This document shows positions 8,579-25,869 of a DNA stretch of 25,869 bases, one piece after another. Every line of letters begins with the position of its first letter. Positions within the stretch are counted from its first letter, which is position 1. The notes beneath the pieces were generated by a model that saw nothing but the letters and a program-made list of their open reading frames with translations, had not been told where the DNA came from and did no database searches. This DNA is from a virus (taxonomy: Duplodnaviria > Caudoviricetes): positions 1 to 25,869 of the IMG/VR virus record IMGVR_UViG_3300031938_000027, one strand, 5' to 3'. The position numbers and the translations under genes were made by a program.

Positions 8579-8585
8579 CGCGAAC

Positions 8586-8614
8586 CCACCCCCTTCCGTC
8601 ACGCCAGGGGGTGG
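8586..8614 (-). promoter_or_regulatory. 9-bp stem-loop that includes the portal Shine-Dalgarno
   Basis: CCACCCCCT-N11-AGGGGGTGG immediately upstream of portal GTG. Confidence 0.45.
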
Positions 8615-8621
8615 AGGCAAC

Positions 8622-8651
8622 GCGAGGCCCCGACCACGGTCGGGGCCTCGC
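8622..8651 (-). terminator. Strong hairpin downstream of NlpC/P60 gene
   Basis: GCGAGGCCCCGACC-N2-GGTCGGGGCCTCGC perfect 14-bp inverted repeat; no long U-tract. Confidence 0.55.
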
Positions 8652-8671
8652 ATCCTCTACAGGGGTAGCGG

Positions 8672-9457
8672 TTACAGCAGCCTGCGCGCGGTGTAGAAGG
8701 CGTAGACGCTCGACACCTTGATCCCGCCGCGCGGGGTGGAGGCGTGGACCATCCGGCCACCGCCGATGTAGATACCGACGTGCCCGGACGCGGGGAACAC
8801 CACGTCACCGAGTTGCAGCTCGCCCCGGCCGATCTGCCGGCCGCGGCCGACGATCCCACCGGTCTGGTGCGGCAGCCCGATCCCGACCCGGGCGTACGCC
8901 GCCATCACCAGGCCGGAACAGTCAAAGGCGCCCGGCCCGGCGGCGGCCCACACGTAGGGCTTGCCGACCTGGGCGAGGGCGAACGCCACGACGACGGCCG
9001 CGCGGCTCCCGTCCGCCTGCGCGACGTACACCGGGGTGACCGGTCGTGCGCGTGCGCGGCGGGGAGCTGGTGGGGCGGTGCTGCGTTGTCGGGGCTTGGG
9101 TGCCACGGCCCGCCTCTTGGGCGGGGCCGGTGCGGCGACCGGTGGAGTTACTGGCAGGGTTGACGACGCGGCGCTGGCCTCCGGCCGGCCGACAGAGCGG
9201 GCGGCCCGGTCGGCGCGGTCGGAGACCATGCGCTGCTTCATCGCTCGGATCTCGGCGGCTTCGTCGTACGCGACCGCGGGGGCCGCGGCGACGGCCGCCG
9301 GGATGTAGGTGTCGGGAATGGACTTGACCGCCGGCGCCGGGTTGGCGAGCGCTGCCATGCTGAGCACGACGAACGCGACGGTTGCGAGGGCCACGCACTG
9401 ACGCAGCGGACCGTGGTGCAGCGTACTGATGTCGCCTCCAGGGACGACCCGGGGCAC
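8672..9457 (-). CDS. Secreted NlpC/P60 (C40) peptidoglycan endopeptidase; start codon uncertain
   Basis: Signal-peptide-like N-terminus, Pro/Arg linker, GKPYVWAAAGPGAFDCSGLV...HVGIYIGGGRMVHAS with Cys-His-His intact. Confidence 0.88.
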   Translation of the reverse strand: MPRVVPGGDISTLHHGPLRQCVALATVAFVVLSMAALANPAPAVKSIPDTYIPAAVAAAPAVAYDEAAEIRAMKQRMVSDRADRAARSVGRPEASAASSTLPVTPPVAAPAPPKRRAVAPKPRQRSTAPPAPRRARARPVTPVYVAQADGSRAAVVVAFALAQVGKPYVWAAAGPGAFDCSGLVMAAYARVGIGLPHQTGGIVGRGRQIGRGELQLGDVVFPASGHVGIYIGGGRMVHASTPRGGIKVSSVYAFYTARRLL

Positions 9458-9582: not shown

Positions 9583-11316
9583 TCAGCGGATTCGCTTCGG
9601 TAGGTACACCTCTTGCGCCCGCGGCTTAACGCCTTGCGCAACTGCCTCGCTCGCCGCTTCGTAGGCCAGCACAGCCGCCATCGCGGCGTCAATTTTTCGG
9701 GGCGAATGCGGGTGCTCCTTGCGGATCTGCACCCCGGCCCGGCCGACAGCGCGCCGAGCGTTGCCGATATGCCGGGTCAGACCCAGCGCCATCCGTTGCT
9801 CGTTCGTGCCGTCGCCGCGGTCCTCCGGCGGCGTGAACCCGATCCGGCCGGCGCGCACCGCCTCGTAGAAGCGCTGCAACGCGGCGACCATCGCGGTGGG
9901 CCGGTTGGTCCACCACTCGATCGGCTTCTTGACGCTGGCCTTGACCTTCATCTTCTCCGCGTACTCGCGGTGCCAGCGGTCCAGCTCGTCGCGCCAGTGC
10001 GCGGGGTCGGCGTAGAACCCGACGACCTCGAAGTGCCGCATCGCGTTGGCGACCGCGGCGTCCACCGCGGACCGGTCGACTTCCCATTCGGTGCCGCCGG
10101 CACCCTCGGGCTTCTCCCACAGGCCGAGCAGCTCCAGGTGCCCATCGGCGACGCGGCACGCCACGAGCGCCGTCGCGTCGTCGCGGACGGAGCCGTCCAG
10201 GCCGAGCGTGACCATGTCGCGGCGCTTGAGCCCGGACCCGGGCCGCCGGCACCCCTCCCACTCGTGTTCCTGAATCCAGGCGTCCGAGCTGGAGGTGCGG
10301 GCGTTCAAGAAGTATCGACGCGAGTCACTCTCAGTGTTGCGAAGATCATAAAATTCATCGATGAGGCCATCGATGTCGATCCACTCAACAGCGTCGCCGT
10401 ACGCCTCGATCAGCGCCGCACGCAGCGCATCCTCGTCGGCGGTGTCCTTGCACTCGCCATACCTGTGGTCGTACATGAGGCGGTGCCGGCCGCGTTTCTT
10501 GCGGCCCTCGCGGAGCGCCTCCGCCTCCTCGTAGGTGGCCTTCGCCATCGAGTCCTCAGACGGGTCGAACATCGTCGTGGACTCGTAAAACCAGGTACCG
10601 GAGCCCTTCTTCCGCTTGCGCATGTTCCGCGTGATGGTGCGGTACATGCGCCGCAGCTCGGGGGTTGTATAGAGGTGCGTCTCATCGAGGACGCAGAACG
10701 TCTCCTTGCCGCCGTCCTTCGCCGAGCTGGAAGCGGTCGACACCCGGATGTCGCCGCCGCCCGGCAGCAGGATCTTGTCGACGCCGGCGTCGACGCCGGG
10801 CACGAACGACAGCGGCGGCTCGTACTCCTCGTCCGTCAGGTTGAAGTGGATGGTGGCGAACACGTTGCTCGCCGCCTGGTTCTCCTCCGTCGCCAAGCAC
10901 CGGATCATCGGCGCTGTCACCGGCCGGCCCATCGGCTCGCCCGGCTCGTAGACGTAGACGAATCCCAGACCCCACGGGTCGCGGAAGACCTCACCGCCCT
11001 TGGCCCATTGCCCGGTGAACCGGGCAGGGCCGAGAGCCTCGAACAGCGCGAGCCTGGCGCCCAGGCCGCTCTTGTCGCAGCCCTTCGGTCGGCTCAGAAA
11101 CGCGCTGTCGTACAGCATGTGGTTGTTCGACGGGTGCTCGCCGATCATGTAGCAGTCGACGATGAACCCGCTGTACTCCTCGCCGTGCGTGACCGGTTGG
11201 CCCTGCACGTCGCCTGGCCCATGCCGGACGAAGTGCTCCATCCATGCCAGCGCCAGCCACCCCAAGCTGCGGTTTCGGTCTTCGTCCCGGTGTGCACGTA
11301 CCAGCGTCCGTGGCAT
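9583..11316 (-). CDS. terL: Terminase large subunit
   Basis: Walker A SRPKGCDKS, Walker B VLDETH, nuclease LGLDGS..DDATAL, C-terminal KIDAAMAAVLA. Confidence 0.95.
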   Translation of the reverse strand: MPRTLVRAHRDEDRNRSLGWLALAWMEHFVRHGPGDVQGQPVTHGEEYSGFIVDCYMIGEHPSNNHMLYDSAFLSRPKGCDKSGLGARLALFEALGPARFTGQWAKGGEVFRDPWGLGFVYVYEPGEPMGRPVTAPMIRCLATEENQAASNVFATIHFNLTDEEYEPPLSFVPGVDAGVDKILLPGGGDIRVSTASSSAKDGGKETFCVLDETHLYTTPELRRMYRTITRNMRKRKKGSGTWFYESTTMFDPSEDSMAKATYEEAEALREGRKKRGRHRLMYDHRYGECKDTADEDALRAALIEAYGDAVEWIDIDGLIDEFYDLRNTESDSRRYFLNARTSSSDAWIQEHEWEGCRRPGSGLKRRDMVTLGLDGSVRDDATALVACRVADGHLELLGLWEKPEGAGGTEWEVDRSAVDAAVANAMRHFEVVGFYADPAHWRDELDRWHREYAEKMKVKASVKKPIEWWTNRPTAMVAALQRFYEAVRAGRIGFTPPEDRGDGTNEQRMALGLTRHIGNARRAVGRAGVQIRKEHPHSPRKIDAAMAAVLAYEAASEAVAQGVKPRAQEVYLPKRIR

Positions 11317-11341: not shown

Positions 11342-11848
11342 TCAGGCCGGTCGAGTCAGGCGCCGACGCCGGTCAGCGATCGGAGTCACCGACGCGCCGC
11401 CGCTGCTGCCGGCCAGGGCCACCTCGGTGACCTCGACCTCCAACTCCGGCTCGTCTTCCTCCTCGATCGAGGCAGGGTCAGCGACGTACCGGATGCGCAG
11501 CTTCCGCAGCGCCTCCAGCGTCGTGCCCATCTGGTCCTCGCGGCGGCGGATCTCGACGGCCATCGTGGTCGTCGCTTCACCCTGCTCGGCGAGCTTCCAG
11601 TAGGCGTTCTTCATGAACGCGGTCTCCAGCGCGAACGTCCAGTCGACCGCGCGCCACAGCACGCAGTGCGGCATCTCCCGGACCTGCTCCCACCACTGCT
11701 CGACCATCTGGTGCCACCGCTCACGGCGGGGCAGCTTCGGCAGGTCGGGGGACGGGCCGCTGTACGGCGTGTCCACCACGTCGGTCCAGTCGGCGTTCTG
11801 GGTGCGGCCGTGCTTGACCGTCTTGGCGGCGGGGCCTCGGTGTGCCAT
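11342..11848 (-). CDS. terS: Terminase small subunit
   Basis: Immediately upstream of terL; WW..V..MPHCVLW..VDW.FALETA...EIRRREDQMGTT..ALRKLRIRY; start ATG 11848 after GGGAG. Confidence 0.85.
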   Translation of the reverse strand: MAHRGPAAKTVKHGRTQNADWTDVVDTPYSGPSPDLPKLPRRERWHQMVEQWWEQVREMPHCVLWRAVDWTFALETAFMKNAYWKLAEQGEATTTMAVEIRRREDQMGTTLEALRKLRIRYVADPASIEEEDEPELEVEVTEVALAGSSGGASVTPIADRRRRLTRPA

Positions 11849-11936
11849 CGGAATCACTCCCATGTCGGGATGCAGCAGCACGCCCAGCCCCTGTCGGGCC
11901 GGGCGCAGGTGAACAGGTCAAGGGGGAGTGGGCCAG

Positions 11937-13239: not shown

Positions 13240-13548
13240 CTACCGCAGGGCCGGGTGCGTCTCCGGCGGCCGGTTCAGCGGTGGCCGGGCGGCCACGCCT
13301 TCCAGCGCCGACTTCCTTCGGTGGCAGGGCTCGCACGCCGGCTGGAGGTTCTCCAGCGAGTGGTCGTCGCCCCGCCGCTTGTGGTCGACCTGCGTGGCAG
13401 CGCCAACGCACAGGCCCGGGTAGCGCAGCGCGCACACCCGCCCATCCCGGGCGAACACCTGATCACGGACCCCGCCGGGCTTGTCCCAGTCGGCGGGGAG
13501 CCGGGCACGCCGCGTCGAGCCCGCCCACGGCCGGCGCACGCCGGTCAC
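13240..13548 (-). CDS. HNH endonuclease (terminase-associated type)
   Basis: RDGRVC...C...ATQVDHK..GDDHSLENLQPACEPCHRRKS. Confidence 0.9.
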   Translation of the reverse strand: MTGVRRPWAGSTRRARLPADWDKPGGVRDQVFARDGRVCALRYPGLCVGAATQVDHKRRGDDHSLENLQPACEPCHRRKSALEGVAARPPLNRPPETHPALR

Positions 13549-13967
13549 GTTGTGGACTCCCGGTCTTCCAGACCGACCGCGGAGCGCAGCTCGCGGCTGG
13601 CCTGCCGCGTCCGGCCGGCCAGCGCCTCGGCGTCGGACGTTCCGTCACCGGTCGCGGCGAGCAGCTCGGCGAGGCCCTCGGCGAGCGCGTTCAGCTTGTG
13701 CTGCGTCGCCTGGTCGGAGCGGGTGGCCGTGTTCTGGAGGAGTGCCACCAGTAGGAATGTGACGATGGTCGTGGCGGTGTTGATCACCAGTTGCCACGTG
13801 TCGACGTTCCCGAACAGCGGCAGCGACGGCGCCCAAACCAGCACCATCAGCACACATGCCGCGAAGAACGAGGCCCGCGACACCATCCGCGCGGCGACGC
13901 CGGCGAATCGGTCGAACCAGCCGACGCGCGCGGACACCTCGCTCGGCATCCGCTCCCGGCTGCTCAT
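13545..13967 (-). CDS. Low-affinity iron permease (Fet4-like) family membrane protein
   Basis: FDRFA..AARMVSR..FF..CVLMVLVW.P....DTWQLVINTATTIVTFLLVALLQNT..RSDQA.QHKLN signature. Confidence 0.82.
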   Translation of the reverse strand: MSSRERMPSEVSARVGWFDRFAGVAARMVSRASFFAACVLMVLVWAPSLPLFGNVDTWQLVINTATTIVTFLLVALLQNTATRSDQATQHKLNALAEGLAELLAATGDGTSDAEALAGRTRQASRELRSAVGLEDRESTT

Positions 13968-14834: not shown

Positions 14835-15153
14835 GTGCGCCGTGCGCGCCCCCGGGGGGGGTCCCCGCCCACCCCCGGGCGCGCGCGAAAAAACCGCGCC
14901 CGGCCGCGCGTCGTGTGGGCGCGGCGTGCGTGGGCGCGTATGCGCGACGCGTGGGGGTGGGCGCGTTTGCGCAGGTGGGCGGGGGTGCGTGACGCGGGCG
15001 CGCGTGTGTCGGCTCCGCCGTTCGGCCTAGTGGTGGTCAGCCGTTCGGCTGATTCTGGGGTGAGGGGGCTTGACAAGGCCCGCCTCCCTAGTGCCAACTG
15101 AGACCGCACAGCAACCCCGCCCCACCACATGGGGCACGACGCAGGGAGCGGAC

Positions 15154-15351
15154 ATGATCACACTGGCACTGGTGGGGGCACTGGCCATCCTGGCAGCACT
15201 GATGATCCACACCGTGCGGCGCAGGGCCACCGTGCAGCGCAGGGCAGCCGGCCACGCCGTGATCCACTCCGCTCCCATCGCTGACCCTGCCTGCCCAGAC
15301 CCGGACATGGGCGCTCTCTCGTGGCTCATTTGGGACGGACTTGACCGCTGA
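15154..15351 (+). CDS. Small membrane protein (65 aa)
   Basis: GGGAG RBS, MITLALVGALAILAALMI hydrophobic helix followed by basic residues; TTGACA at 15070 upstream. Confidence 0.55.
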   Translation: MITLALVGALAILAALMIHTVRRRATVQRRAAGHAVIHSAPIADPACPDPDMGALSWLIWDGLDR

Positions 15352-15364
15352 CCCTGCCTGCCCA
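15279..15364 (+). repeat. 19-bp direct repeat CGCTGACCCTGCCTGCCCA
   Basis: Copies at 15279-15297 and 15346-15364. Confidence 0.8.
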
Positions 15365-15394: not shown

Positions 15395-18300
15395 ATGAAC
15401 GCCAACAGCACCCCCACCCCCCGCATCGGCGACGTGATCCTCATCCCCGCCGGCGCTTGCCCCGAGTACCGCGCCGCGTTCCGTCTCCGCGTCTCGGAGA
15501 TCCTCACCCGGGCCGGTCGCGGCACCCTTGACCGGCCGATCGTGGGCGGAACCGTGGTCAACGCCAACGGGCAAGACCGCATGCTCAAGGGCACCCCGGT
15601 CGAGCGCGCTTGCACGGTCGACCTGGGCGCGGTGACCGTGGTCACCCCCGCCCCCGCGACCGACGCGGAGATTCGCGCGGCCTACGCCGATCATGCGGCA
15701 CGCGAGATTGAGCGCACCCGGTGCGCTCACGCACCCGATGCCCTGGGCTGCACGCACGTGCACTGTGTCGGCGTGCCACCGGTCGATGCCGCGACGTCGG
15801 TCGAGCCGGAAGCGTCGGACGTTGCGACCCCCGCGGAGTACGGCACGCAAACGCTCGCACGGACGTTGCGTGACACGCTCCGCGCGTATCCCACGATCAC
15901 GGATGCGTCCATGCCGCGGGTCACGACTACGGGTGAGGGCAACGGCCGTACGCGTCCGTTCACTGTGGCTACCTCCCAGGTCGACGGACACGCCGTGAAC
16001 GTGATCATGTGGGAGGGTCCGCGCTGCGCGCCGATGACCGCGGTCATGATCGATGGCGTACTGATCAACGCCGATGTTACCGGCGGACGTGCCATGCGCA
16101 ACGATGAGCGCACGAACATGATCGTTTGGCGGGTAGCGGACGCGCTCCGCGACACGGCCACGGTCGAGCCTGCCGATACGTGTTGCGCGCAGTGTGGAAG
16201 CCCGGCGAGTAGCAACCGTCACCATGTGGCGCGCCCAGCAGGGCACCCGTTTGTCGCCGAGGGTGAGGCCACCATGTCCGCCACCGTCGCCCAGGTCGAG
16301 CCGGCCACGGTCACGCTTGCCGATCCGGCCGCGCGTGCGCTCGCCACCATGACCGCGCTTACAGCCGATGTCGTGCACGTGGGATGCCTGCACGGTCTGA
16401 AGGGTGCGCCCGGGTGTCACGTGACCGGGTGTGACATGCCGATCCGGCCGGCACTGGTCACGTGCCCCGAGTGTCTCGCGTGGCTTGCCGGCGAGTCCGG
16501 CCGCGCGTGGGCCGGACGTTGGGCTGGCAACTTTGCCCGTATCGCGCAGAGCGGATACGGGTGCGCCGGGTTTACCCCCCGCGACGGGTGGCCGCACACG
16601 TGCGCCGGGTGCCTCCGTCCCGACGTCGCGCACACCCCCGCACTGTCCGCCTACCCGCACAACCTGGGCGCCGATGCGCCCGTAACCGAGAGTGAGGCCA
16701 CCATGTCCGCCACCGTTCCCGCCACCGTCGCCCAGGTCGAGCCGGCCGCCGTGCCCGTGGTCGACGCGGCCCCCGATGTGCTTGCGGCGTTGCTCGCGGG
16801 TGAGCCGATCCCCGCGGACGCGCTTACCCCGGTCGAGCCGGCCCGGCTGTCTGTGACGGTCGACCGCGACACGCTCGCGGACGCGCTCACACTGGCCGCG
16901 TGGTCCGCCCCGCGTCGCCCGTCCGTGCCCGTCCTGTCGGGCGTGATGATCACGGCCGACGCGGATGCCGGCACGGTCACGTTCGGGTCGTTCGATTACG
17001 AGGTTTTCTCGATCAACGCGCTTCCCGCGACCGTGACCGCGGCCGGCCGCGTGTTGGTCGATGTCAAGGCACTCCGCGACATGGTCAAGACGTTCCCTAA
17101 GGTCAAGCGACTGACGGCCGCCCAGGTCCGTAAGGGTGTGACCCTGCCGGCCGGTGCGGGCATGGTCACACTCACGGACACGGGAAGCGCGGTCACGGTC
17201 GAGTACGGCGCGGCCCGTGCGTCCCTGCCGACCCTGCCCGCGGAGGATTACCCGGCGATCATGCTCGGTACCGCGACCCCCGCAACCGTCGCCCAGGTCG
17301 ACGCGGACATTCTGGCCGCGACCGTGGCCCGGGTGACCGTGGCCGCGGGTAAAGACGACACGCTGCCAATGCTCACGGGCGTGCAGCTCACGACGGACGC
17401 GGACGGACTCCGCGCCCACTTGGCAGCAACCGACCGGTACCGTCTCGCGGTCGACGCGACCCGTTGGGTGCCGGTCGTGCCGGACGGGGCAGAGCCGCGC
17501 GAGCACATCATGCCCGCGCTCATCCCCGCCGCGACGCTCGCCTACGCCGCAAAGTGGTTCGGCCGTACCGCGGGCGTGGTCACGGTCGGCATGACGTACG
17601 GCACCCGGTCGACCATGACGGGCAGTGGTAAGACCGCTAAAACGGTCGTGACGACGTACGCCGATTCGATCACGCTGACGTGCGGCCCGGTCACGATCGG
17701 CACCCGCACCCTTGACGGGGAGTTTCCCGCGGTACGCGCGTTGCTCCCGGACACGTACGCCGGTACCGCCCAGGTCGACGCGCACGCACTGGCCGATGTC
17801 GTCGCACGGGTCGGCATGGTCGCGGCGCGTTCAACGCCGGTTCGGCTCACGTGGTCGGCCGACGCGGTCACCGTGGCCGCGACCGGTGACGGTGACGCGA
17901 CCGCATCGGAGACCATGCCCGCGTCCGCGGACGTCGCGGACGGGTTCACGATGGGCCTTAACCACGCGTTTCTGATTGACGGACTCCGCGCGTTCTCCAA
18001 AGGTGCGGCCGTCCGGTTCGGGTTCGTGTCCGCGTCAAAGCCGGCCGTCATCGAATCGGCCGACACGGACGGGCCGGACGCGTTCCGCTATCTGATCATG
18101 CCGGTTCGTATCGGCGGGGGTAGTGAGTCGGCCGCCCCGTCTACCCCGGTCGGTCACCGGTCGGTTGCGGTCGAGCCGGCCCCCGTGGTCGAGCCGGTCG
18201 TCCAGGTCGAGCCGGTCGCGGACGTGACTCCGGTCGAGCCGGCCGCCCCGGCCGCCCCGGTCGAGCCCGTCGCCCAGGTCGAGCCCGTCGCGGCCCCCGT

Positions 18301-19618
18301 GGTCGCACCGGCCGCCCCGGTCGCGGTCGAGCCGGTCACGGTGCCCGCGTCGGTCGACCTTCACGGGGTCACGGTCGAGCGTGTCGCGGAGATCCTGCGC
18401 ACCGGCACGTGGTCGAGCGCGGTTGTCCGCGTCGGCAAGGGTCGGGAGCGGCGCCCGATGGGCGTGAGGGTGCTCGCGCTCAACGCCGGCCGGCTGGACT
18501 ACGCGACCGAATACAAGGCGGTTGCGGCCGTGCTCGCGACCCTGGGCGGGGGTTGGAACCGTGAGGTTAAGGGGTTCGCGTTTGCCCCGTCTGAGACGGT
18601 TTGGAACGGCGCCGGTGCGGGTGCGCGGACGCCGGAACCGTCAGCGAAGGTGACCGGGTGGCTTGACCGGTACGCCCCGGCCGCGGACTCCGCCCCGGTC
18701 GCCCAGGTCGAGCCCGTCGCGGACGTTGCGCCCGCTGAGACGGTCAACGCGGCCCCCGCGGACGTGCCCGCGGTCGACGCGCACGACGCGGCGGAACATG
18801 CCGCCCAGGTTGTGCACGACGCGATGACCGCGGGTGACTACCCGGGCGCACGGGTGGCCCTGGGCGACGTTGCCCGGGTGGCCCCGGCCGGGTACCTCGT
18901 CGCGGGTCGGTTCACGCTTGACGCGCTCGCCGGGATCATCGACGCGGCGGAGCGTGACGCGCTCGCGTCGGCCCCCGCGCCCGTCGCCCAGGTCGAGCCG
19001 GCCGCCGTGGTTGAGCCGGCCGCGATCCTGAAGACGCCTAGCGCTCCCGGCGTTGTGCTGCCCATGGTCGCGGCGGGTACCCGCGTGCGCGTGACCCGTG
19101 AGCCCGTGACCGTGGTCGGGTCGGTCGAGTACGAGCCGGGCATGGTTCGCGTCCGTCACGCCGACGGTTCGGTTACCCGGACGCTGCGCGAGTACGTGAC
19201 CCCGGTCGAGCCGGCCGCGCCCGCGGTCGAGCCCGTCGCGGCCCCCGTGGTCGAGCCGGCCGCGATCGACGCTGACGACGCGGACACCCTGGCCGCGGGC
19301 ACGGCCGCCGCGCTCGCGGCCATGGTCGAGCCGGTCGAGCCGGCCGCCGCGTCCGTGGTCGAGCTGGACGCGGCCGGGCGGCTGTCGTTCACGATCGCGC
19401 CGTACGCGGAAGATGTGAACGAGGGTCGGTCGTACAAGGCGACGCGCAAGCACGTTCACGCGGCGCTGCGCGCGGCGAAGGTGCGGGCCACGGTGCACGC
19501 GGACACCGACAGCCGGCGGGGTATGCACGTTGAGTGCGACGCCGCCGACCGGGTGCGGGTGGCCGTGATCGTGCGTAACACCGTGACCGTGGTCGAGCCG
19601 GCCGCCGCGACTGTCTGA
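15395..19618 (+). CDS. 1407-aa multidomain protein containing a DNA polymerase III beta sliding-clamp (DnaN) domain at about 16847-18112
   Basis: AGGAAGG RBS; RRPSVPVLSGV, SFDYEV, GRVLV, LPAEDYP, AAGKDDTLPMLTGV, AATDRYRLA, LDGEFP.VRALLP, N..FL.DGL, KPAVI, YLIMPVRI are actinobacterial DnaN motifs; flanking modules joined by VEPA linkers. Confidence 0.88.
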   Translation: MNANSTPTPRIGDVILIPAGACPEYRAAFRLRVSEILTRAGRGTLDRPIVGGTVVNANGQDRMLKGTPVERACTVDLGAVTVVTPAPATDAEIRAAYADHAAREIERTRCAHAPDALGCTHVHCVGVPPVDAATSVEPEASDVATPAEYGTQTLARTLRDTLRAYPTITDASMPRVTTTGEGNGRTRPFTVATSQVDGHAVNVIMWEGPRCAPMTAVMIDGVLINADVTGGRAMRNDERTNMIVWRVADALRDTATVEPADTCCAQCGSPASSNRHHVARPAGHPFVAEGEATMSATVAQVEPATVTLADPAARALATMTALTADVVHVGCLHGLKGAPGCHVTGCDMPIRPALVTCPECLAWLAGESGRAWAGRWAGNFARIAQSGYGCAGFTPRDGWPHTCAGCLRPDVAHTPALSAYPHNLGADAPVTESEATMSATVPATVAQVEPAAVPVVDAAPDVLAALLAGEPIPADALTPVEPARLSVTVDRDTLADALTLAAWSAPRRPSVPVLSGVMITADADAGTVTFGSFDYEVFSINALPATVTAAGRVLVDVKALRDMVKTFPKVKRLTAAQVRKGVTLPAGAGMVTLTDTGSAVTVEYGAARASLPTLPAEDYPAIMLGTATPATVAQVDADILAATVARVTVAAGKDDTLPMLTGVQLTTDADGLRAHLAATDRYRLAVDATRWVPVVPDGAEPREHIMPALIPAATLAYAAKWFGRTAGVVTVGMTYGTRSTMTGSGKTAKTVVTTYADSITLTCGPVTIGTRTLDGEFPAVRALLPDTYAGTAQVDAHALADVVARVGMVAARSTPVRLTWSADAVTVAATGDGDATASETMPASADVADGFTMGLNHAFLIDGLRAFSKGAAVRFGFVSASKPAVIESADTDGPDAFRYLIMPVRIGGGSESAAPSTPVGHRSVAVEPAPVVEPVVQVEPVADVTPVEPAAPAAPVEPVAQVEPVAAPVVAPAAPVAVEPVTVPASVDLHGVTVERVAEILRTGTWSSAVVRVGKGRERRPMGVRVLALNAGRLDYATEYKAVAAVLATLGGGWNREVKGFAFAPSETVWNGAGAGARTPEPSAKVTGWLDRYAPAADSAPVAQVEPVADVAPAETVNAAPADVPAVDAHDAAEHAAQVVHDAMTAGDYPGARVALGDVARVAPAGYLVAGRFTLDALAGIIDAAERDALASAPAPVAQVEPAAVVEPAAILKTPSAPGVVLPMVAAGTRVRVTREPVTVVGSVEYEPGMVRVRHADGSVTRTLREYVTPVEPAAPAVEPVAAPVVEPAAIDADDADTLAAGTAAALAAMVEPVEPAAASVVELDAAGRLSFTIAPYAEDVNEGRSYKATRKHVHAALRAAKVRATVHADTDSRRGMHVECDAADRVRVAVIVRNTVTVVEPAAATV
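16263..16716 (+). repeat. 25-bp direct repeat GTGAGGCCACCATGTCCGCCACCGT containing SD-like GAGG and in-frame ATG
   Basis: Copies at 16263-16287 and 16692-16716. Confidence 0.85.
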
Positions 19619-19625
19619 CCCGCCT

Positions 19626-19658
19626 ACCCGGGGCGGGTGACCGCCATCCGCCCCGGGT
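19626..19658 (+). terminator. Hairpin after the clamp-fusion gene
   Basis: ACCCGGGGCGGGTG-ACCGC-CATCCGCCCCGGGT, 14-bp stem with one G-U. Confidence 0.6.
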
Positions 19659-19659
19659 G

Positions 19660-19681
19660 TAACCTTGCCCTAGGTGTTAGG
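19660..19681 (+). promoter_or_regulatory. Conserved 22-bp promoter/operator motif, copy 1
   Basis: TAACCTTGCCCTAGGTGTTAGG; 19/22 identical to 22327-22348. Confidence 0.7.
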
Positions 19682-19708
19682 GCAGAGAACACGAGGGAGT
19701 GACCCGAA

Positions 19709-20302
19709 ATGACGATCATCGACACGCATATGGCCACGGCCACGGATACGGACCCCGCCGCTACCGGGTGGCAGGCCGTGACCCTCACGGAGTACGCCGG
19801 CGACCCCGGGCAGGGCCGCGCGGAGTACGTCGCCAACGACGCCCGCACCGGCGAATACGCCGGCGAAGTCCGGCGCAGCACCCGCGGCCGGTGGCACGCC
19901 TACCGGGGCGGCGTCACCGGTTCGGGCCGGTCGCGTGGCGCCGCGCTCACCGCCGTGCAGTGGCTTGACGCGGTGCCGGTTGAGCGCGTCCGCCGGGGTG
20001 CCGCGCTTGTGCTGGCCGACGGGACCGCGGTCACGGTCGCTGGCACCTGGGCGGGCAACGCGACAGAGCGCCGCGCGCTGGAGTTGCACGCGACCGGCCG
20101 CCGCGTCGAACTGTCCACGCCCGCCCCGGTTGAGCCGATGTGTGCCCAGGTCGAGAGCACCCGGTGGCGCGGCCGTCGGGTGATCTCGTACCTGTACCGG
20201 CCGGCCGCCGGCACGCTCGTGGTGCTCGCCCCGCCGTGCTGGCATTGCGCGACTGAGGCCGGCCGGGCGTGCGCGCCGAACTGCCACACCTTCAACCGCT
20301 GA
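19709..20302 (+). CDS. Hypothetical protein (197 aa), Cys-rich C-terminus
   Basis: GAGGGAG RBS; C-terminal CWHC...C...CH. Confidence 0.7.
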   Translation: MTIIDTHMATATDTDPAATGWQAVTLTEYAGDPGQGRAEYVANDARTGEYAGEVRRSTRGRWHAYRGGVTGSGRSRGAALTAVQWLDAVPVERVRRGAALVLADGTAVTVAGTWAGNATERRALELHATGRRVELSTPAPVEPMCAQVESTRWRGRRVISYLYRPAAGTLVVLAPPCWHCATEAGRACAPNCHTFNR

Positions 20303-20353
20303 CCGTTCCCCGCTTTCCGTTCCACGCTTCACCAGCCTGAGAGAGAGCACATC

Positions 20354-22267
20354 ATGAGCAACGCACGCGCCGCACGCATGGCACAGCGCGCCCGCAAGCA
20401 CGAGGAAGCCGCCGCCCGCGTCATCGATGGATTCGTGCGCACCCCCGCCGGCCTGGCCGATGACCTGGTGTCGGGGCACCGCGACATGAGCGCATTTACT
20501 TGGGGCGCGCGCATCCTGGAACCGTCCGCCGGTGACGGCGCGATCGTGCGCGCCATCCTGGAAGGTGACCGCGACGTGACCGTGATCGCGGTCGAGCCCA
20601 ACGGGGAGCGGGCCGACGCCCTCGACGCGCTCTCCGGTGAGGCAGACCACGCCGGCCGCGTGATCGTGTTCCGGGGCGCGCTTGAGCAGTACGCCGAACA
20701 CGTCGCATGGTGCCGCGAGTACCCGACAGCGGAGGTTGCCGGCCTGCCGGCGACCATGCACGGCGACCCGTTCGACGGCGTGATCATGAACCCGCCGTTT
20801 GGTGACTCGTCCCGTGACCTGGTGTGGATCGATCACGTGCGCACCGCGTGGGAAATGCTCCGGCCGGGCGGACTTCTCGTGTCGATCGTGCCCCCGTCGT
20901 ACGCGTTCCGCTCCGACAAGGCGCACCGCGCGTTCCGCACCTGGGCGGAATCGCACGGCGCGACGTACGCCAAGCTTCCCGGTCAGCCGTTCGCAGAGTC
21001 CGGCACCGGCACGCAAGCGGGCATCCTCACCGTGCCCCGGCCGATGCCGGCCCGCGCGGATGGGCTTCCCACGTGGCTTTACGCACCCGCCGCCGGTGTG
21101 CCGGTGCCGGTGCGGGGTCTGCCGGTGACCACGTCCGCGGGTGCCCTGACCATGCCCGTACAGGAGTACAGCGATTTTTCCGACGGGTCGCGCCCGCGGG
21201 TGCTCCGGTACTCGGGCACGTGCCACACGTGCGGCCGGTGCTGCTGGACGCACGACGACCGGCACGACGCCGCCGCGTTCGAGGCGATCACGGTCGATGC
21301 CGCCGAACACGCCGCCGCCGGCCCGTCCGTCGTGCTCTGCCTCGAACACGGCACGGGCGGGGAGGAGACGGCCGCCGCGCTCGCCGCCGCCGCGCCGCAC
21401 TGGACCCCGGACGCGGACGCTGACCCGCTCGCCGAAACCGGGCCGGTCGTGTACCCGCTCGACCTGGACGCGGGCACCTGGGCGACCGTCCGTGGGATCG
21501 ACTCCCACGGGTGGGTATTCACCATCACGGGTCGCGTCATGTGCACCCCGGAGCGCGTCGCGGACCTGGGCGAGTCGGCCTCGTTCCATGACGAGCGGAT
21601 CGGCGTCACGCTGCGCACCGTGCGCGGGTGGACGGTCGAGCTGTACGCGCTGGAAGACCAGCGGGTGACCGTGCGCGACGTGCTCACCGACGCGGTGCCG
21701 GCCCCGGCCGCAGAACCCCTGCCGGACTGGATGCCTCAACCGGCCGCCGGTCGGCCGCTCGCGACCGCGGGCAGCGCGGAGCGCCTCGCCGAGTCCGCCG
21801 ACATGGCCGCGCACCACCAGGCCGCCGCGGACGCCGCGCGGACGCACATCGTGGGCGGGTCGACCGTCGTCGCACACCCCGACCACGGCGCACCGGTCAT
21901 CGTCGCGCAGACACGGCGGATCGACATCACAGACGCAGGCGACAACCCGCCGGCGGGCGCGTGGGTCGCGGACCCGTCGCGCACCCCGGTCGGCGCCACG
22001 CTCACCGTGTACGGGGTCCGCACCGGGCAGGCTGACGAGATGATCCGCCGCGAGCACGTCACGCTCGACCACGACACGCACGAGGCGGCGCAGGCGCTCG
22101 CGGAAGAGGTCGCCGCCGGCGAGCCGATCACGCCCGGCGTGGCCGTCTGGGTGCTGGTCAGCCGTGACAGCATCAATCACGAGTACGCCGACGCGCGACG
22201 GGCCGCGCCCGCGCCCGCGCCGTTCGTGTCGGACTGGTCGAACTGGACTGAGCCGGCGCTGTTCTGA
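20354..22267 (+). CDS. DNA amino-methyltransferase (likely m6A) with long C-terminal accessory domains
   Basis: FVRTP (motif X), ILEPSAGDGAI (motif I), AVEP (II), VIMNPPF (IV), LRPGGLLVSIVP, PFAESGT (VIII); then CxxC domain and small beta domains. Confidence 0.88.
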   Translation: MSNARAARMAQRARKHEEAAARVIDGFVRTPAGLADDLVSGHRDMSAFTWGARILEPSAGDGAIVRAILEGDRDVTVIAVEPNGERADALDALSGEADHAGRVIVFRGALEQYAEHVAWCREYPTAEVAGLPATMHGDPFDGVIMNPPFGDSSRDLVWIDHVRTAWEMLRPGGLLVSIVPPSYAFRSDKAHRAFRTWAESHGATYAKLPGQPFAESGTGTQAGILTVPRPMPARADGLPTWLYAPAAGVPVPVRGLPVTTSAGALTMPVQEYSDFSDGSRPRVLRYSGTCHTCGRCCWTHDDRHDAAAFEAITVDAAEHAAAGPSVVLCLEHGTGGEETAAALAAAAPHWTPDADADPLAETGPVVYPLDLDAGTWATVRGIDSHGWVFTITGRVMCTPERVADLGESASFHDERIGVTLRTVRGWTVELYALEDQRVTVRDVLTDAVPAPAAEPLPDWMPQPAAGRPLATAGSAERLAESADMAAHHQAAADAARTHIVGGSTVVAHPDHGAPVIVAQTRRIDITDAGDNPPAGAWVADPSRTPVGATLTVYGVRTGQADEMIRREHVTLDHDTHEAAQALAEEVAAGEPITPGVAVWVLVSRDSINHEYADARRAAPAPAPFVSDWSNWTEPALF

Positions 22268-22276
22268 CGGCCGTCA

Positions 22277-22310
22277 CGGTGCCGGGCGGGCGGCTGCTCG
22301 CCCGGTGCCG
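22277..22310 (+). terminator. Hairpin after methyltransferase gene
   Basis: CGGTGCCGGGCGGGC-GGCT-GCTCGCCCGGTGCCG with G-U pairs. Confidence 0.5.
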
Positions 22311-22326
22311 CGTTGGCCCGTTATGC

Positions 22327-22348
22327 TAACCTCGCCCTAGCAGTTAGG
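22327..22348 (+). promoter_or_regulatory. Conserved 22-bp promoter/operator motif, copy 2
   Basis: TAACCTCGCCCTAGCAGTTAGG, preceded by TGC (extended -10-like TGnTAACCT). Confidence 0.7.
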
Positions 22349-22368
22349 TCACGAATCAAGGGGGAAAG

Positions 22369-23619
22369 ATGACCGCAACCACCGACCCGGCCGACGCCTA
22401 CCGCGCCGCGCTCGCGGCTGCCGGCCTGCCGGACGGGCTCACGTGGTCCGTCAAGGTGACCGCGCGCCGCGCGACCGCCACCCCGGCGAAGACCCGCCGC
22501 ACGCTCGGTGCCACGATCGCCCCGGGCGGTACCGCCGTCGTCTTCACCGTGCCCGCCGACACCGACCCCGGCAAGGTCGCCGACGCCGCCCGCCGCATGC
22601 GCGGTAAGCTCGCCGTTGCCGCGGAGGACATGCGCGCCCGGGGCGTGACGATCGTCCGTAAGCAGCTCGTGAACGGCGAAGGGTTCCCGTTCGCGGGCAC
22701 GAACCACCGTCTCCGCCTGGTCGATGACAGCGACACCGGCCGGCGCTGCCCGTGCCAGTGCTCGCGGCTCACCACCGAGCACCCGGGCGTGCCGATCGTC
22801 GCGGAGCGCGGACACCCGACGTGGTCCGGCGTCCGCACGTGGCAGCTCACGATGCGCCGCGACGCAGCCACCGCCCGGACGGTCATCGAGTGGTACCGCG
22901 AGCAGGGCCGCGCGTGGCTCGACCGGCACGTGCCGGACCTGCTCCGCCGGGTGTACGTCCAGCCGGCCGACTGGCCGACGTGGGAGGTTCGCCCGTACCG
23001 CGAGGGTGAGGGCTACGGCGGCACGTGGGGGACGTACCTCCCGCGCACGCACACGATCCGCCTCTCCTGGCTCGTGTTCCAGTTCCCCGCCGACCTGCTG
23101 CGCTACGTGGTCGCGCACGAGGTCGCGCACGCCGCGATCCGCGGCACCCACGGGCACGGCCGGCCGTGGCAGCTCGTGGTTTCGCGACTGTGCCCCGACT
23201 GGGAGACGTTGGACCCGCGCGCCCGCGCACTGCCCGGCCTGTGCCTCTGGGCCGGCGAGCTGGACACACCGCCGGCGGCGCCGGAGGAGTTCCCGGCCTG
23301 GATGCTCGCCGACCTGCGCGAGCTGCTCGCGGGCGCGTCCTGGTCGGTGGGTTCGTTCCGGCCGGGCCTGTTCAAGCGCGGCGAGCCGGTCGCCGCGGAC
23401 GTGCTCCGCGTGCCCACCCGCGAGACGTGGTCGAGCGGCGCTCGCGACATGGCCCGCCGCGTGCTGGACGGCATCGGCGGGCACATGTCGACCGACGCCG
23501 ACGGGTTTCTGTTCCCGCTGGGCGAGGGTCCCGAGCGGCTGCGCGCGTTGCTGGGCGACGTCCCCGCGCCGGTCGCCCCGTTCGTGTCCGCCTGGTCGAC
23601 GTTCGCGGGTGCGCGATGA
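22369..23619 (+). CDS. YgjP/DUF45-like (M48/zincin) metallohydrolase with extra C-terminal domain
   Basis: VNGEGFPFAG..HRL, WGTY....TIRLSW....P.DLLRYVVAHEVAH....H...W..V.RLCPDW. Confidence 0.82.
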   Translation: MTATTDPADAYRAALAAAGLPDGLTWSVKVTARRATATPAKTRRTLGATIAPGGTAVVFTVPADTDPGKVADAARRMRGKLAVAAEDMRARGVTIVRKQLVNGEGFPFAGTNHRLRLVDDSDTGRRCPCQCSRLTTEHPGVPIVAERGHPTWSGVRTWQLTMRRDAATARTVIEWYREQGRAWLDRHVPDLLRRVYVQPADWPTWEVRPYREGEGYGGTWGTYLPRTHTIRLSWLVFQFPADLLRYVVAHEVAHAAIRGTHGHGRPWQLVVSRLCPDWETLDPRARALPGLCLWAGELDTPPAAPEEFPAWMLADLRELLAGASWSVGSFRPGLFKRGEPVAADVLRVPTRETWSSGARDMARRVLDGIGGHMSTDADGFLFPLGEGPERLRALLGDVPAPVAPFVSAWSTFAGAR

Positions 23620-24509
23620 TCAGTGACGGTCAGGGCGTGCTGTTCGAGCTGGGCGACCTATGCCAGCGCTGGAACACCGGCGCGCACACCTGGGCGCCCG
23701 CGGACACGTTCCGGGCGAGCCGGTACGCGGTCCACCAGATCGACACGGCGACCGCGCGCCGGTTCGTGACCGGACACCACTACAGCCGGTCGTACCCGGC
23801 CGACCGGGCGCGGTTCGGGATGTTCGAGGGGTCGCGCCTGGTCGGCGTGGCCGTGCTCGGGCAGCCGATGCACGACCGGGTGACCGGCAAGGCGTTCCCG
23901 ACGTTGGGCCGCATGGACGCCGCCGAGTTGTCCCGGTTTGTCCTGCTCGACCACGTGCCGGCGAACGCGGAGACGTGGCTCCTTGCCCGCGTGTTCCGGC
24001 TCGCCGCCGGCGACGGGCTGCGCGGCGTGGTCGCGTTCTCCGACCCGATGCCGCGCCGCACCGCCGCCGGTGAGCTGCTCATGCCCGGCCACTTGGGGCA
24101 CATCTACCGGGCCGGCGCCGGCGCCACCGGCCGCTACACCGGGCGCGGCACCCCCCGCACGCTGACGATCCTCCCGGACGGGCGCGTGTTCTCCGCCCGC
24201 ACCCGCGCGAAGGTCACCGCGTGGGACCGGGGCGGGCCGGCCGCCGTCCGCGAGCTGGTCGACCTGGGCGCGTCCGGCCCGGTCGACGGGCACGGCTGCA
24301 CCGGCTGGGCGGCACTGGGCGGCATGACCGCCGTCGAGCGCGGCGCGTGGCTCACAGACGCGCTCGCGGCCGTCGGCGCCCGCACCGTCCGGCACCGCGG
24401 AAACCACCGGTTCGTGTGGGCGATCGGCGACCGGGGAGCCCGCCGGCGTACCCCGATCGCGCTTGACGCGCTCCCGTACCCGACGACCCTGGACGCGGTG
24501 ACGGCATGA
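23616..24509 (+). CDS. Mom-family adenine-modifying GNAT enzyme
   Basis: ATGA overlap start at 23616; ARRFVTGHHYS.SYP...FGMF...LVGVAV.G.P, ELSRFVLLD.VPANAETW, GVVAFSDP, GHLGHIYRA...YTGR. Confidence 0.82.
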   Translation: MISDGQGVLFELGDLCQRWNTGAHTWAPADTFRASRYAVHQIDTATARRFVTGHHYSRSYPADRARFGMFEGSRLVGVAVLGQPMHDRVTGKAFPTLGRMDAAELSRFVLLDHVPANAETWLLARVFRLAAGDGLRGVVAFSDPMPRRTAAGELLMPGHLGHIYRAGAGATGRYTGRGTPRTLTILPDGRVFSARTRAKVTAWDRGGPAAVRELVDLGASGPVDGHGCTGWAALGGMTAVERGAWLTDALAAVGARTVRHRGNHRFVWAIGDRGARRRTPIALDALPYPTTLDAVTA

Positions 24510-25165
24510 CCCGGCAACCGCTCCAGCGACCGGCCGGGCACCCGCGGGCGTGCATCTGCACCGCGTGCGGGTTCGCGGAGATGGACGAAATCCGGATCGG
24601 GTTCGGGCTGGAGCCGCTCGGGTTCGACGGCGACCCGTTCGTGAGGGTCCCTCGGGCGTACGTGCAAGCGGTCATGAACGGCGGCCGGGTCCCGATCGTC
24701 CTGCCGGACGAGCTGGAGGACGCGAGCACCGCGGAACTGTACGCGGCCGGCGCGCTGGAGCCGGTGCCCGTGCACGTCGAGGACGTCGCCGCCGGCATGT
24801 TCTGCCGGGTGCAGGGCCTGGACCCGGCCGGCGAGTGGGTCGACGTGACCGGGTACATCGGCTGGCCCGCCGACGCCGGTGACGGCCTGGTGAGCGTGCC
24901 TGTTGCCGGCGTCGCGGTCCTGGTCGACGCGGACGCGCGGCTTGAACTGGCGCCGGAGCCGTGGGACCCGCCGCCGCTGGTCGAGCGGGGCCGGCCGTAC
25001 CGCGTGGACCTGATCAACGTCGCTTGCGAGGTGACCCGATCGGTGCAGGTGTCCAACCTCGCCCAGGTCGACGCGCTCGCCCGCGACCACCACCCCGACC
25101 CGCTCGACCCTGACGGCGCGCTCGCGCCGGCGCTCTACTGCCTGAACTGGAGGGGCCAGCGATGA
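24506..25165 (+). CDS. Hypothetical protein (219 aa) with N-terminal H..C.C..C and a small beta-barrel-like module
   Basis: ATGA overlaps at both ends. Confidence 0.7.
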   Translation: MTRQPLQRPAGHPRACICTACGFAEMDEIRIGFGLEPLGFDGDPFVRVPRAYVQAVMNGGRVPIVLPDELEDASTAELYAAGALEPVPVHVEDVAAGMFCRVQGLDPAGEWVDVTGYIGWPADAGDGLVSVPVAGVAVLVDADARLELAPEPWDPPPLVERGRPYRVDLINVACEVTRSVQVSNLAQVDALARDHHPDPLDPDGALAPALYCLNWRGQR

Positions 25166-25869
25166 CCACCACCCCCGCCGGCGTGCCCGGCGTCGACTAC
25201 CCAGCCCCGCCGTACCCGGGGATCACCTACGTGATCCCGTGCGGGGGCGGGAAGCTCGACCATGCCGCGCCGGCCGCCGAGCTTTACACGGGGAGCATGT
25301 TCCGGCACGCCCTGGCGAACGTCGAACGGCACGCGGCGATGGATGAGGACGAGGGCCGCGGGCCGGCGCGGGTGCTGATCCTGTCGGCGCTGCACGGCCT
25401 GGTCGAGCTGGACACGGTGCTAGAGCCGTACGACCTGCGGATGGACGCGCCGGGGTCGGTGACCGCGGAGACCCTCACCGCGCAGGCGTCGGCGCTGGGC
25501 ATCGACTGGGGCAGTGCGGTGTACACGTTTCTGCCACGGGCATACCTCGCCCGACTTGATGGGGCGTTGCGGACGCTCAACGTGTACGTGCAGGACGTGT
25601 ACGAGGCGTGCGGCGGCAACGGCGAGCAGCGCCGCGTGTTGTCGATCGTCGGCACCAACGACCGGGCCGGCGTGGTCGAGCTGCCCGACGGCCCCGGCAC
25701 GCTGGTGTGGATCGGCGCGGACGTCAACGGGTTCGCGTGGGGCGTGCCGATGCTGGTCAGCTACGGCCGGCTACGGGACGCGCAGACACTGCCGATCGCG
25801 CGGGCGCCGTGGGTGCTGGACTCCCGCGGGTTCAACGAGATCCGCGAGCACGGCCGGTGGACAATCGAC
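25162..25869 (+). CDS. DUF6884-like domain fused to a TGT/DpdA-like (queuine tRNA-ribosyltransferase-like) domain; truncated at window end
   Basis: Not in ORF track; translated by hand: VIPCGGGK...APAAELYTGSMF...VLILSALHGLV..DTVLEPYDLRM, then VPMLVSYGRL...LP.ARAPWVLDSRGFNEIREHGRWT. Confidence 0.75.
   Translation, partial: MTTTPAGVPGVDYPAPPYPGITYVIPCGGGKLDHAAPAAELYTGSMFRHALANVERHAAMDEDEGRGPARVLILSALHGLVELDTVLEPYDLRMDAPGSVTAETLTAQASALGIDWGSAVYTFLPRAYLARLDGALRTLNVYVQDVYEACGGNGEQRRVLSIVGTNDRAGVVELPDGPGTLVWIGADVNGFAWGVPMLVSYGRLRDAQTLPIARAPWVLDSRGFNEIREHGRWTID

Follow-up and report, generated by a model that had tools for sequence, protein, structure and literature searches.

A giant sliding clamp protein heads a recurrent, predicted DNA-modification island of phages in which some enzymes share a C-terminal peptide

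Can a phage use its own sliding clamp as a platform for enzymes that modify its DNA? The question is raised by a stretch of viral DNA (Duplodnaviria; Caudoviricetes) in which a clamp gene stands at the head of a cluster of putative DNA-modification genes. The window analysed here is the entire IMG/VR record IMGVR_UViG_3300031938_000027, a linear contig of 25,869 nucleotides (nt) with a GC content of ~70% and a CheckV completeness of ~30%. A first-pass annotation of the sequence had proposed that one co-oriented cluster, starting at 15395, combines a DnaN-domain protein with an NPPF amino-methyltransferase (MTase), a Mom-like protein, a DpdA-like enzyme and a YgjP-like zincin, and that the phage stacks three base-modification chemistries on its own clamp, next to the genome end. 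The GC content of third codon positions (GC3), 0.85-0.93 in the island frames, served to choose coding frames. From 15395 to the contig end, the + strand carries genes for a giant DnaN protein, orf197, the MTase, the zincin, Mom, orf219 and a DUF6884-DpdA fusion. Pfam, PHROG and motif evidence, together with full-length relatives in the case of DpdA, bore out the presence and common orientation of all five named domains. In searches with hidden Markov models, the three DnaN domains, YgjP-like, Mom and DUF6884 scored above their curated Pfam cut-offs and DpdA slightly below. The cluster also has no restriction nuclease, as claimed; an HNH gene beside the terminase (13240-13548, - strand) is the only nuclease-like gene in the window and lies outside the cluster. 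The placement next to the genome end had to be dropped, because position 25869 is the end of a linear and incomplete contig.

The gene at the head of the island (15395-19618, + strand) encodes a clamp protein of 1,407 amino acids (aa), recognized by Pfam and PHROG matches, by high GC3 over the entire open reading frame (ORF) and by 12 homologues. Its best start is the ATG at 15395, which follows a Shine-Dalgarno-like AGGAAGG and agrees with the start in the first-pass annotation. Within the 1,425-aa ORF, PF00712, PF02767 and PF02768 were matched at aa 504-923 (E = 2.9e-18, 2.9e-15 and 2.1e-16, respectively). The DnaN core (16850-18115, + strand) ends in IMPVRI (nt 18095-18112), a C-terminal strand that presumably forms part of the clamp cleft, and it aligns end to end, with two insertions, with the solved clamp 8dj6 (E = 4e-50). 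The top solved relatives of the core are the beta clamps 8dj6, 5ah2 and 3rb9, which we take to be actinobacterial; the E-value was 4e-50 with the single sequence and 1.6e-92 with a family profile, and the three score far above the remaining solved clamp entries. Flanking the core are 485 aa on the N-terminal and 500 aa on the C-terminal side, extensions that are unusual for a clamp.

A length-restricted homology search assembled a family of 12 such giants (990-1,477 aa, 31-77% identity), ten of which have all three DnaN Pfam domains, with two domains in one of the others and one in the last. The small modules of the C-terminal part are joined by "VAQVEP" linkers rich in Pro, Ala, Val and Glu. 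At the DNA level the linker is an in-frame 17-nt motif, found in 8 copies where 0.02 were expected and only inside the giant ORF. Module order varies between relatives, giving the protein a beads-on-a-string architecture. Two modules, PVIVAHVxRVD and EPGMxRVR, are common to the giant and the MTase family; a third weakly resembles the C-terminal extension of the zincin (27% identity over 70 aa, E = 0.002), and the zincin has a tblastn match to the C-terminal part of the giant in locus L070. A named family was found in the giant only for the DnaN core. An AlphaFold model of the N-terminal 482 aa had a mean pLDDT of 58.6 and was confident only at aa 1-254, and a Foldseek search of this model against the PDB gave no match at E<=0.001, only weak SH3-, CAP-Gly- and Tudor-like rows. 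Because GC3 is high throughout, 12 long DnaN homologues exist and the linker motif is confined to the ORF, we conclude from the sequences that both the giant ORF and the giant clamp family are real.

Inside the giant ORF, in-frame ATGs at 16274 and 16703 (+ strand) each follow GAGGCCACC and each open the peptide MSATV. The second sits 49 codons ahead of the clamp core, and the context "ESEAxMS" is kept in several giant homologues (P0001, P0002 and P0006). Both may be internal starts that yield a shorter clamp protein.

The MTase gene (20354-22267, + strand) encodes 637 aa. An MTase domain (approximately aa 1-235) comes first; behind it are a conserved middle domain that contains Cys, small modules in shuffled order and a tail at the C-terminus. 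The protein matched no Pfam or NCBIfam model; it matched ten PHROGs, among them families annotated as DNA methyltransferase (3.9e-21). Motif I, EPSAGDG, is at aa 56-62 (nt 20519-20539) and motif IV, NPPF, at aa 146-149 (nt 20789-20800), and N146, P147 and P148 are invariant in an alignment of 17 family sequences. PF05175 (MTS) was recorded for five of the homologues, and the family profile weakly matches METTL5, M.TaqI and HemK, which act on rRNA, DNA and protein, respectively. On the basis of motif I and NPPF, we conclude that the window protein is an amino-methyltransferase, with DNA as its presumed substrate. A candidate clamp-MTase fusion in Erythrobacter phage ZS04 (L002, 5671-6459), a 262-aa MTase-like gene annotated as "DNA polymerase processivity factor", was rejected. 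The label is probably an annotation error, as the same gene in the related phage vB_EliS_R6L carries the annotation of a protein like the methyltransferase subunit of type I restriction-modification systems.

The zincin gene (22369-23619, + strand) encodes a 416-aa protein of the YgjP/SprT type, matched by the Pfam YgjP-like and SprT-like families. YgjP-like (PF01863) scored 72.8 bits against a cut-off of 26. Its HEVAH is at aa 250-254 (nt 23116-23130), with a further His seven residues on (...GTHGHG), and a representative library yielded 271 homologues at E<=0.001. The 297-aa Mom-family protein (23616-24509, + strand) starts in an ATGA overlap with the zincin stop. It scored 76.2 bits against PF25680 (cut-off 27.1; profile positions 2-124 of 202) and 3e-24 against phrog_1384 (positions 15-218 of 245), and several of its 199 homologues are named "Mom family adenine methylcarbamoylation protein" at their source. 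Scans of viral contigs with the single Mom protein found nothing. An N-terminal QGVLF was considered as a clamp motif of the window Mom and rejected, the segment being conserved in four of four Mom proteins, including one from an unrelated gut-phage record. Mom of phage Mu carries out adenine N6 carbamoylmethylation. The window protein is like it in belonging to Pfam Mom and PHROG 1384, and differs in being an actinophage protein of 297 aa that is probably translationally coupled to the zincin and DpdA genes with no Com- or Dam-type control visible. Methylation and Mom-type modification are predictions from family membership, and an anti-restriction outcome is presumed.

The last gene (25162-25869, + strand) encodes, by Pfam, a DUF6884-DpdA fusion, of which 236 aa lie before the contig end. 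DUF6884 (PF21818) scored 55.7 bits against a cut-off of 30, with CGGGK at aa 27-31 (nt 25240-25254) and LSALHG at aa 74-79 (nt 25381-25398); the motifs described for this family are CxxxK and LSAxxG (PMC11701544). A DSRGF is found at nt 25819-25833. Because the contig end leaves only ~45 aa of the DpdA domain, the window fragment scored 24.6 bits against PF23859, below the cut-off of 27, and covers only profile positions 19-60. Full-length relatives in L004 (67% identity, 426 aa) and L085 reached 157.5 and 136.9 bits. In the literature searched, no paper mentioned a DUF6884-DpdA fusion.

The window MTase and zincin have a C-terminal peptide, PFVSxW, in common. The MTase tail is PFVSDWSNWTEPALF (22220-22264, + strand), with the terminus ...APAPFVSDWSNWTEPALF, and the zincin tail is PFVSAWSTFAGAR (23578-23616, + strand), with the terminus ...PVAPFVSAWSTFAGAR. 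These are the only two coding-frame ORFs of the window that carry it, a third regular-expression match being in a low-GC3, non-coding frame. In the genome G001, 7 of 222 filter-passing ORFs are tailed (for example, FVSGWGAA, PFVSSWGGAL and QLPLFVSTWGAS), and all seven lie within 15.4 kb behind the giant gene (hypergeometric P = 1.3e-9); five of the seven proteins are unnamed. In L069 and L070, the product of the next gene after the giant has the terminus FVSGWAAI and FVSGWAGI, respectively. Among MTase homologues, SxW is kept in 13 of 16, and in 8 of 16 a QLx[LM] directly follows it within the last 14 aa (for example, PFVSGWSQLTLPV and FVSDWGQLMLQF), so that in these relatives the tail is contiguous with a classical clamp motif. 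At least 90% of the 17 aligned MTase sequences retain the tail Trp (W628). Zincins follow the same pattern close to the window: a Trp tail was found in 14 of the 20 closest homologues; it is rarer in distant zincins (8 of 130) and in Mom homologues (5 of 119), and none of the 12 giants has it. The DpdA relatives end in EQLDLFAA (G001), DQLLLFGQ (L100 and L102) or EQIPLFDAG... (L105). Flexible linkers precede the tail, a conserved short linear motif that recurs on island enzymes unrelated to one another.

Published clamp-binding peptides include the C-terminal consensus QL(S/D)LF (PMC9690074) and the motif QLPLWG of mycobacterial ImuB (PMC10421592). Island tails resemble those of such clamp clients in that a short hydrophobic peptide stands at the extreme C-terminus behind a Pro/Ala-rich linker, and several island-family tails end in xWG, as the ImuB motif does; QLPLFVSTWGAS, FVSGWGAA and EPDLWGAL are among the tails of relatives. 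They differ in that the core FVSxW lies outside the published consensus and that the carriers are DNA-modifying or unknown enzymes rather than polymerases or repair factors. The QLxLF-type part would fit the cleft of a phage clamp or a host clamp alike. In the literature searched, no paper linked clamp motifs with phage DNA-modifying enzymes, and the word "clamp" is absent from PMC10516641; within that literature, both the shared end-peptide and its reading as a toolbelt on a clamp are unpublished.

The first-pass annotation could have been refuted by a failure of the genes to co-occur in related genomes, and we found that they do recur, in G001, in L070 and, L085 among them, in 17 of 78 genome loci. 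G001 is a 166,387-nt record with terminal repeats and 100% completeness. It holds the five named genes in window order on the same strand at 33-58% identity, within an island that runs from a giant DnaN (39-43%) through a DUF6011/DUF3072 protein, the MTase (58%), the zincin (48%), a PAPS-reductase-like protein, Mom (54%) and DpdA to a C5-cytosine methylase. The G001 DpdA has no DUF6884 and scored 170.7 bits. In L070, the giant is accompanied by an orf197-like gene and the MTase (69%). MTase homologues and four giant homologues come from records of equal size (55136, 154239, 160088 and 166387 nt), which outside G001 is only a proxy for their lying together. Across 60 DnaN-bearing viral loci, this type of MTase and Mom were found together within 10 kb of DnaN only in L035, with a weak Mom-like match in L059. 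The combination of MTase, Mom and clamp is not general among clamp-carrying phages and is conserved within the giant-clamp lineage.

The 78 loci come from species-representative genomes that were scanned with the MTase profile, and 49 of them matched the MTase query only (local phmmer). In 17 of the 78, another island gene (DpdA, Mom, PAPS-reductase-like and/or giant DnaN) lies on the same strand. L085, from Actinoplanes, has a 989-aa DnaN protein, the MTase, a C5-MTase, a DUF6884-DpdA and a DUF3560 protein, all co-oriented. L082 has the MTase with a DUF6884-DpdA; L088, L100 and L102 have Mom, DpdA and the MTase; five further loci pair DpdA with the MTase; and seven Nocardia loci (L092, L097, L099, L104, L105, L110 and L128) pair a PAPS-reductase-like gene with it. 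Parts of the island are thus found in genomes of Micromonosporaceae and of further actinobacteria, and the strains behind L085, L088, L100 and L102 belong to Actinoplanes, Asanoa and Dactylosporangium. A metagenome scan for relatives returned only the window itself and two short contigs. Taken together, we conclude from gene content and order that this is a genuine, conserved and recurrent DNA-modification island. Its host is likely actinobacterial, to judge from the clamp-core matches (to clamps that we take to be actinobacterial), from the GC content and from the fact that Mom and the MTase have relatives in Micromonosporaceae.

Two observations on relatives are recorded here in their own right. 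The PAPS-reductase-like protein (PP-loop, weakly DndC-like) recurs beside the MTase family; its G001 copy (L073:8146-9354, - strand) ends in QLPLFVSTWGAS, and it may add a further DNA chemistry. L035, at 1-20700 of the 127.8-kb record G002, encodes Mom, an ArdC-N protein, a DUF3560-MTase protein, an ordinary 398-aa DnaN and a 1,339-aa protein with an Arr-type rifampin ADP-ribosyltransferase domain. Its gene content resembles that of a region with anti-restriction or establishment functions in a mobile element.

How might the clamp and the tailed enzymes work together? We propose that the giant clamp protein at the head of what we read as a conserved island of early genes would be a hub onto which the PFVSxW tail docks the MTase and the zincin, either at the clamp cleft or at an accessory module. 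Docked in this way, the DNA-acting enzymes would travel with replication, and the phage DNA would be modified as it is replicated and so be protected from restriction. We regard this model as evenly poised between true and false. The idea of the first-pass annotation that the clamp is a platform gains indirect support from the end-peptide on the island enzymes and from its abutting QLx[LM] in MTase homologues. A broader version extends the model to an actinobacterial phage lineage in which the clamp has been turned into a giant scaffold. There, the PFVSxW label, often fused to QLxLP/F, would recruit up to seven island enzymes (the amino-methyltransferase, the zincin, the PAPS-reductase-like enzyme, the DUF6011 protein and others), DpdA would join via QLDLF, and several chemistries would be written onto daughter strands at the fork. 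This wider picture is tentative, and we put its chances somewhat below even.

Several observations weigh against docking at the clamp. The window tails are the least canonical, the MTase ending in WTEPALF and the zincin in WSTFAGAR, neither with Q-L; Mom carries no tail, and the C-terminus of the window DpdA lies off the contig. No DNA polymerase gene is in view in the window. Of 58 other DnaN-bearing phage loci, 57 lack the FVSxW tail and one, L064, is doubtful; L085, with a giant DnaN of the P0012 type, lacks it too. With FVSxW seen only alongside window-type giants and in neither ordinary DnaN loci nor L085, the tail may bind an accessory module of those giants, or some other receptor, instead of the clamp cleft. 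DnaN lies within 10 kb in only 1 of the 17 combined genome loci (L085), and because the other 16 have none at that distance, the MTase, DpdA and Mom enzymes would also seem to work without a resident, element-encoded clamp. A model of the complex between the clamp core (residues 496-930) and the last 42 residues of the MTase gave a score of 0.01 and a mark of 0.32, which speaks neither for nor against binding.

The 16 loci without DnaN suit an alternative in which the genes are co-located and act independently. DnaN would be a replication processivity factor, the MTase, Mom and DpdA would be separate anti-restriction genes grouped by early-gene clustering, and the tail would bind some other partner that the enzymes have in common, for instance SSB, the clamp of the host, a chaperone or a protease. 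The same alternative gains from Arthrobacter phages, in which an ordinary 360-aa DnaN sits amid helicase/methylase and MTase genes with no sign of coupling, and from the canonical QLxLF-type DpdA tails, which fit the host clamp equally well. In Arthrobacter phage BenchScraper, the DnaN gene likewise has methyltransferase genes close by, lying between a helicase/methylase and a DNA methyltransferase. The DnaN proteins of Arthrobacter and Mycobacterium phages have a core homologous to that of the giant (32-35% identity), but they are standalone proteins of ~360 aa, their neighbouring MTases are not homologous to the window MTase by tblastn, and no FVSxW tails were found with them. Independence of the genes accounts poorly for the confinement of all seven G001 tails to the island behind the giant gene, for the occurrence of the tail only in lineages with a window-type giant (the window, G001, L069 and L070) and for the small modules common to the giant and the tailed enzymes. 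We therefore consider it unlikely, if still a contender.

The modular build of these proteins raises another explanation, in which the giant and the tailed enzymes are packaged in the virion and injected with the DNA, the tail being a packaging or targeting signal. Such delivery has been proposed for the polyvalent proteins of phages and conjugative elements (Iyer et al. 2017, PMC5512222), which are likewise very long, with many small modules in shuffled order. The MTase domain matches MTase domains in PHROG families of giant phage proteins (1,259-3,925 positions) and genes of Pseudomonas and Vibrio phages annotated as internal virion or PLxRFG proteins. A zincin is nearby; ArdC-N, DUF3560 and an Arr-like ADP-ribosyltransferase occur in the related locus L035; and the island diverges from the structural module. 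Yet a sliding clamp and replication-dependent enzymes such as the MTase, Mom and DpdA act on replicating, intracellular DNA, and the tail abuts a clamp-type QLx[LM] in half of the 16 MTase homologues. No linkage of the tail to structural genes was found. The island giant also differs from polyvalent proteins in being built on a sliding clamp core, and the polyvalent-protein paper (PMC5512222) never mentions "sliding clamp", "DnaN" or "beta-clamp". Delivery with the virion is, in our judgement, very improbable.

Does the island encode three chemistries, as first proposed? A DpdA system needs preQ0, which FolE, QueD, QueE and QueC of the phage or host would supply. G001 (100% complete), G002 and G003 (96%) all lack QueC and PTPS/QueD, and the same search found QueC in 13 of 14 and PTPS in 10 of 14 control genomes. 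Hutinet et al. 2019 list 76 phages with DpdA only, among them Mycobacterium phage Orion, whose DNA is described as free of 7-deazaguanine, and they describe mycobacteria as lacking the pathway (PMC6884629). Because near-complete relatives have a DpdA domain without preQ0 genes, they resemble this DpdA-only group; the window protein differs from known DpdA systems in its N-terminal DUF6884 fusion. These points count against a third chemistry, and because the relatives lack QueC and QueD and the DNA of Orion is unmodified, 7-deazaguanine chemistry is doubtful for the island phage. We put the case for only two working chemistries just short of even. In that case, the DUF6884-DpdA protein would insert no 7-deazaguanine, either for want of a precursor or because a different base is exchanged or repaired, and a repair role is what has been proposed for DUF6884, a YaaA-like domain with predicted base flipping (PMC11701544). 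On the other side, the window genome is only ~30% complete, so that precursor genes may lie beyond 25869, and the DpdA domain is well conserved in relatives (137-171 bits). Hosts with a queuosine pathway could supply preQ0, and Salmonella phage 7-11, which has DpdA only, carried a little 2'-deoxy-7-amido-7-deazaguanosine (dADG) (PMC6884629). A restriction to two chemistries is compatible with docking as well as with the other explanations.

If tail docking is true, the island would give prokaryotic viruses a parallel to PCNA-coupled maintenance methylation, with marking physically tied to replication, and it would explain how every new genome copy is modified ahead of host nucleases. The end-peptide beside a clamp gene would then be a signature by which unknown enzymes of DNA modification or anti-defence could be discovered, with the five unnamed G001 proteins among them. 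Sliding clamps already serve a phage process besides DNA synthesis in the clamp-dependent late transcription of T4, through gp45. The C protein of phage Mu is a further case of clamp-dependent late transcription (bioRxiv 10.1101/2025.01.04.631326). The island would resemble these in hooking such a process to the clamp, and differs in that theirs is transcription activation rather than DNA modification, with no such activator identified in the island. With the giant clamp family, the idea of the polyvalent protein reaches a replication factor as well, and the DUF6884-DpdA fusion and the missing preQ0 genes sharpen the question of what DpdA does in DpdA-only actinophages.

Two smaller genes complete the island. 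The genes orf197 (19709-20302, + strand) and orf219 (24506-25165, + strand) are of unknown function; neither gave a family in Pfam, PHROG or NCBIfam (for orf197, no significant one) or a usable ESM Atlas match, and orf197 has a partial homologue at the equivalent position in L070 (60% over 43 aa). ATGA start/stop overlaps join the zincin, Mom, orf219 and DUF6884-DpdA genes, and these four are therefore likely translated as a single unit. The 22-nt motif TAACCTYGCCCTAGNNGTTAGG occurs twice in the window where 0.00 copies were expected, at 19660-19681 (+ strand) upstream of orf197 and at 22327-22348 (+ strand) upstream of the zincin gene. Each copy stands behind a GC-rich hairpin and 20-30 nt before the start codon, which makes it a likely phage promoter or operator, and its placement before these two genes suggests three transcription units.

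The left arm of the window is a structural module on the - strand, with the small terminase (11342-11881), the large terminase (9583-11316), the portal (6998-8653), the major capsid protein (2489-3532), and a protease, a scaffold and a decoration protein. The closest phage relatives of the portal are from Gordonia phages, at ~36% identity. Between the divergent arms, several GC-rich repeats resembling GTGGGCGCG lie at 14895-15010, a region that holds a terminator-like hairpin at 14895-14910 on the - strand and in which a search for a sigma-70-type promoter gave no match. An ORF of ~65 aa (15155-15352, + strand), behind GGGAG and with the hydrophobic N-terminal stretch ITLALVGALAILAALMI, also sits between the arms, immediately upstream of the giant gene. 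A membrane protein resembling low-affinity iron permeases (13545-13967, - strand; PF04120, 5.5e-25; PHROG 3485, category "moron") is encoded just upstream of the genes for HNH and the terminase. An NlpC/P60 peptidase-domain protein (8672-9457, - strand) is encoded between the large terminase and the portal and so occupies an unusual site for a cell-wall hydrolase domain.

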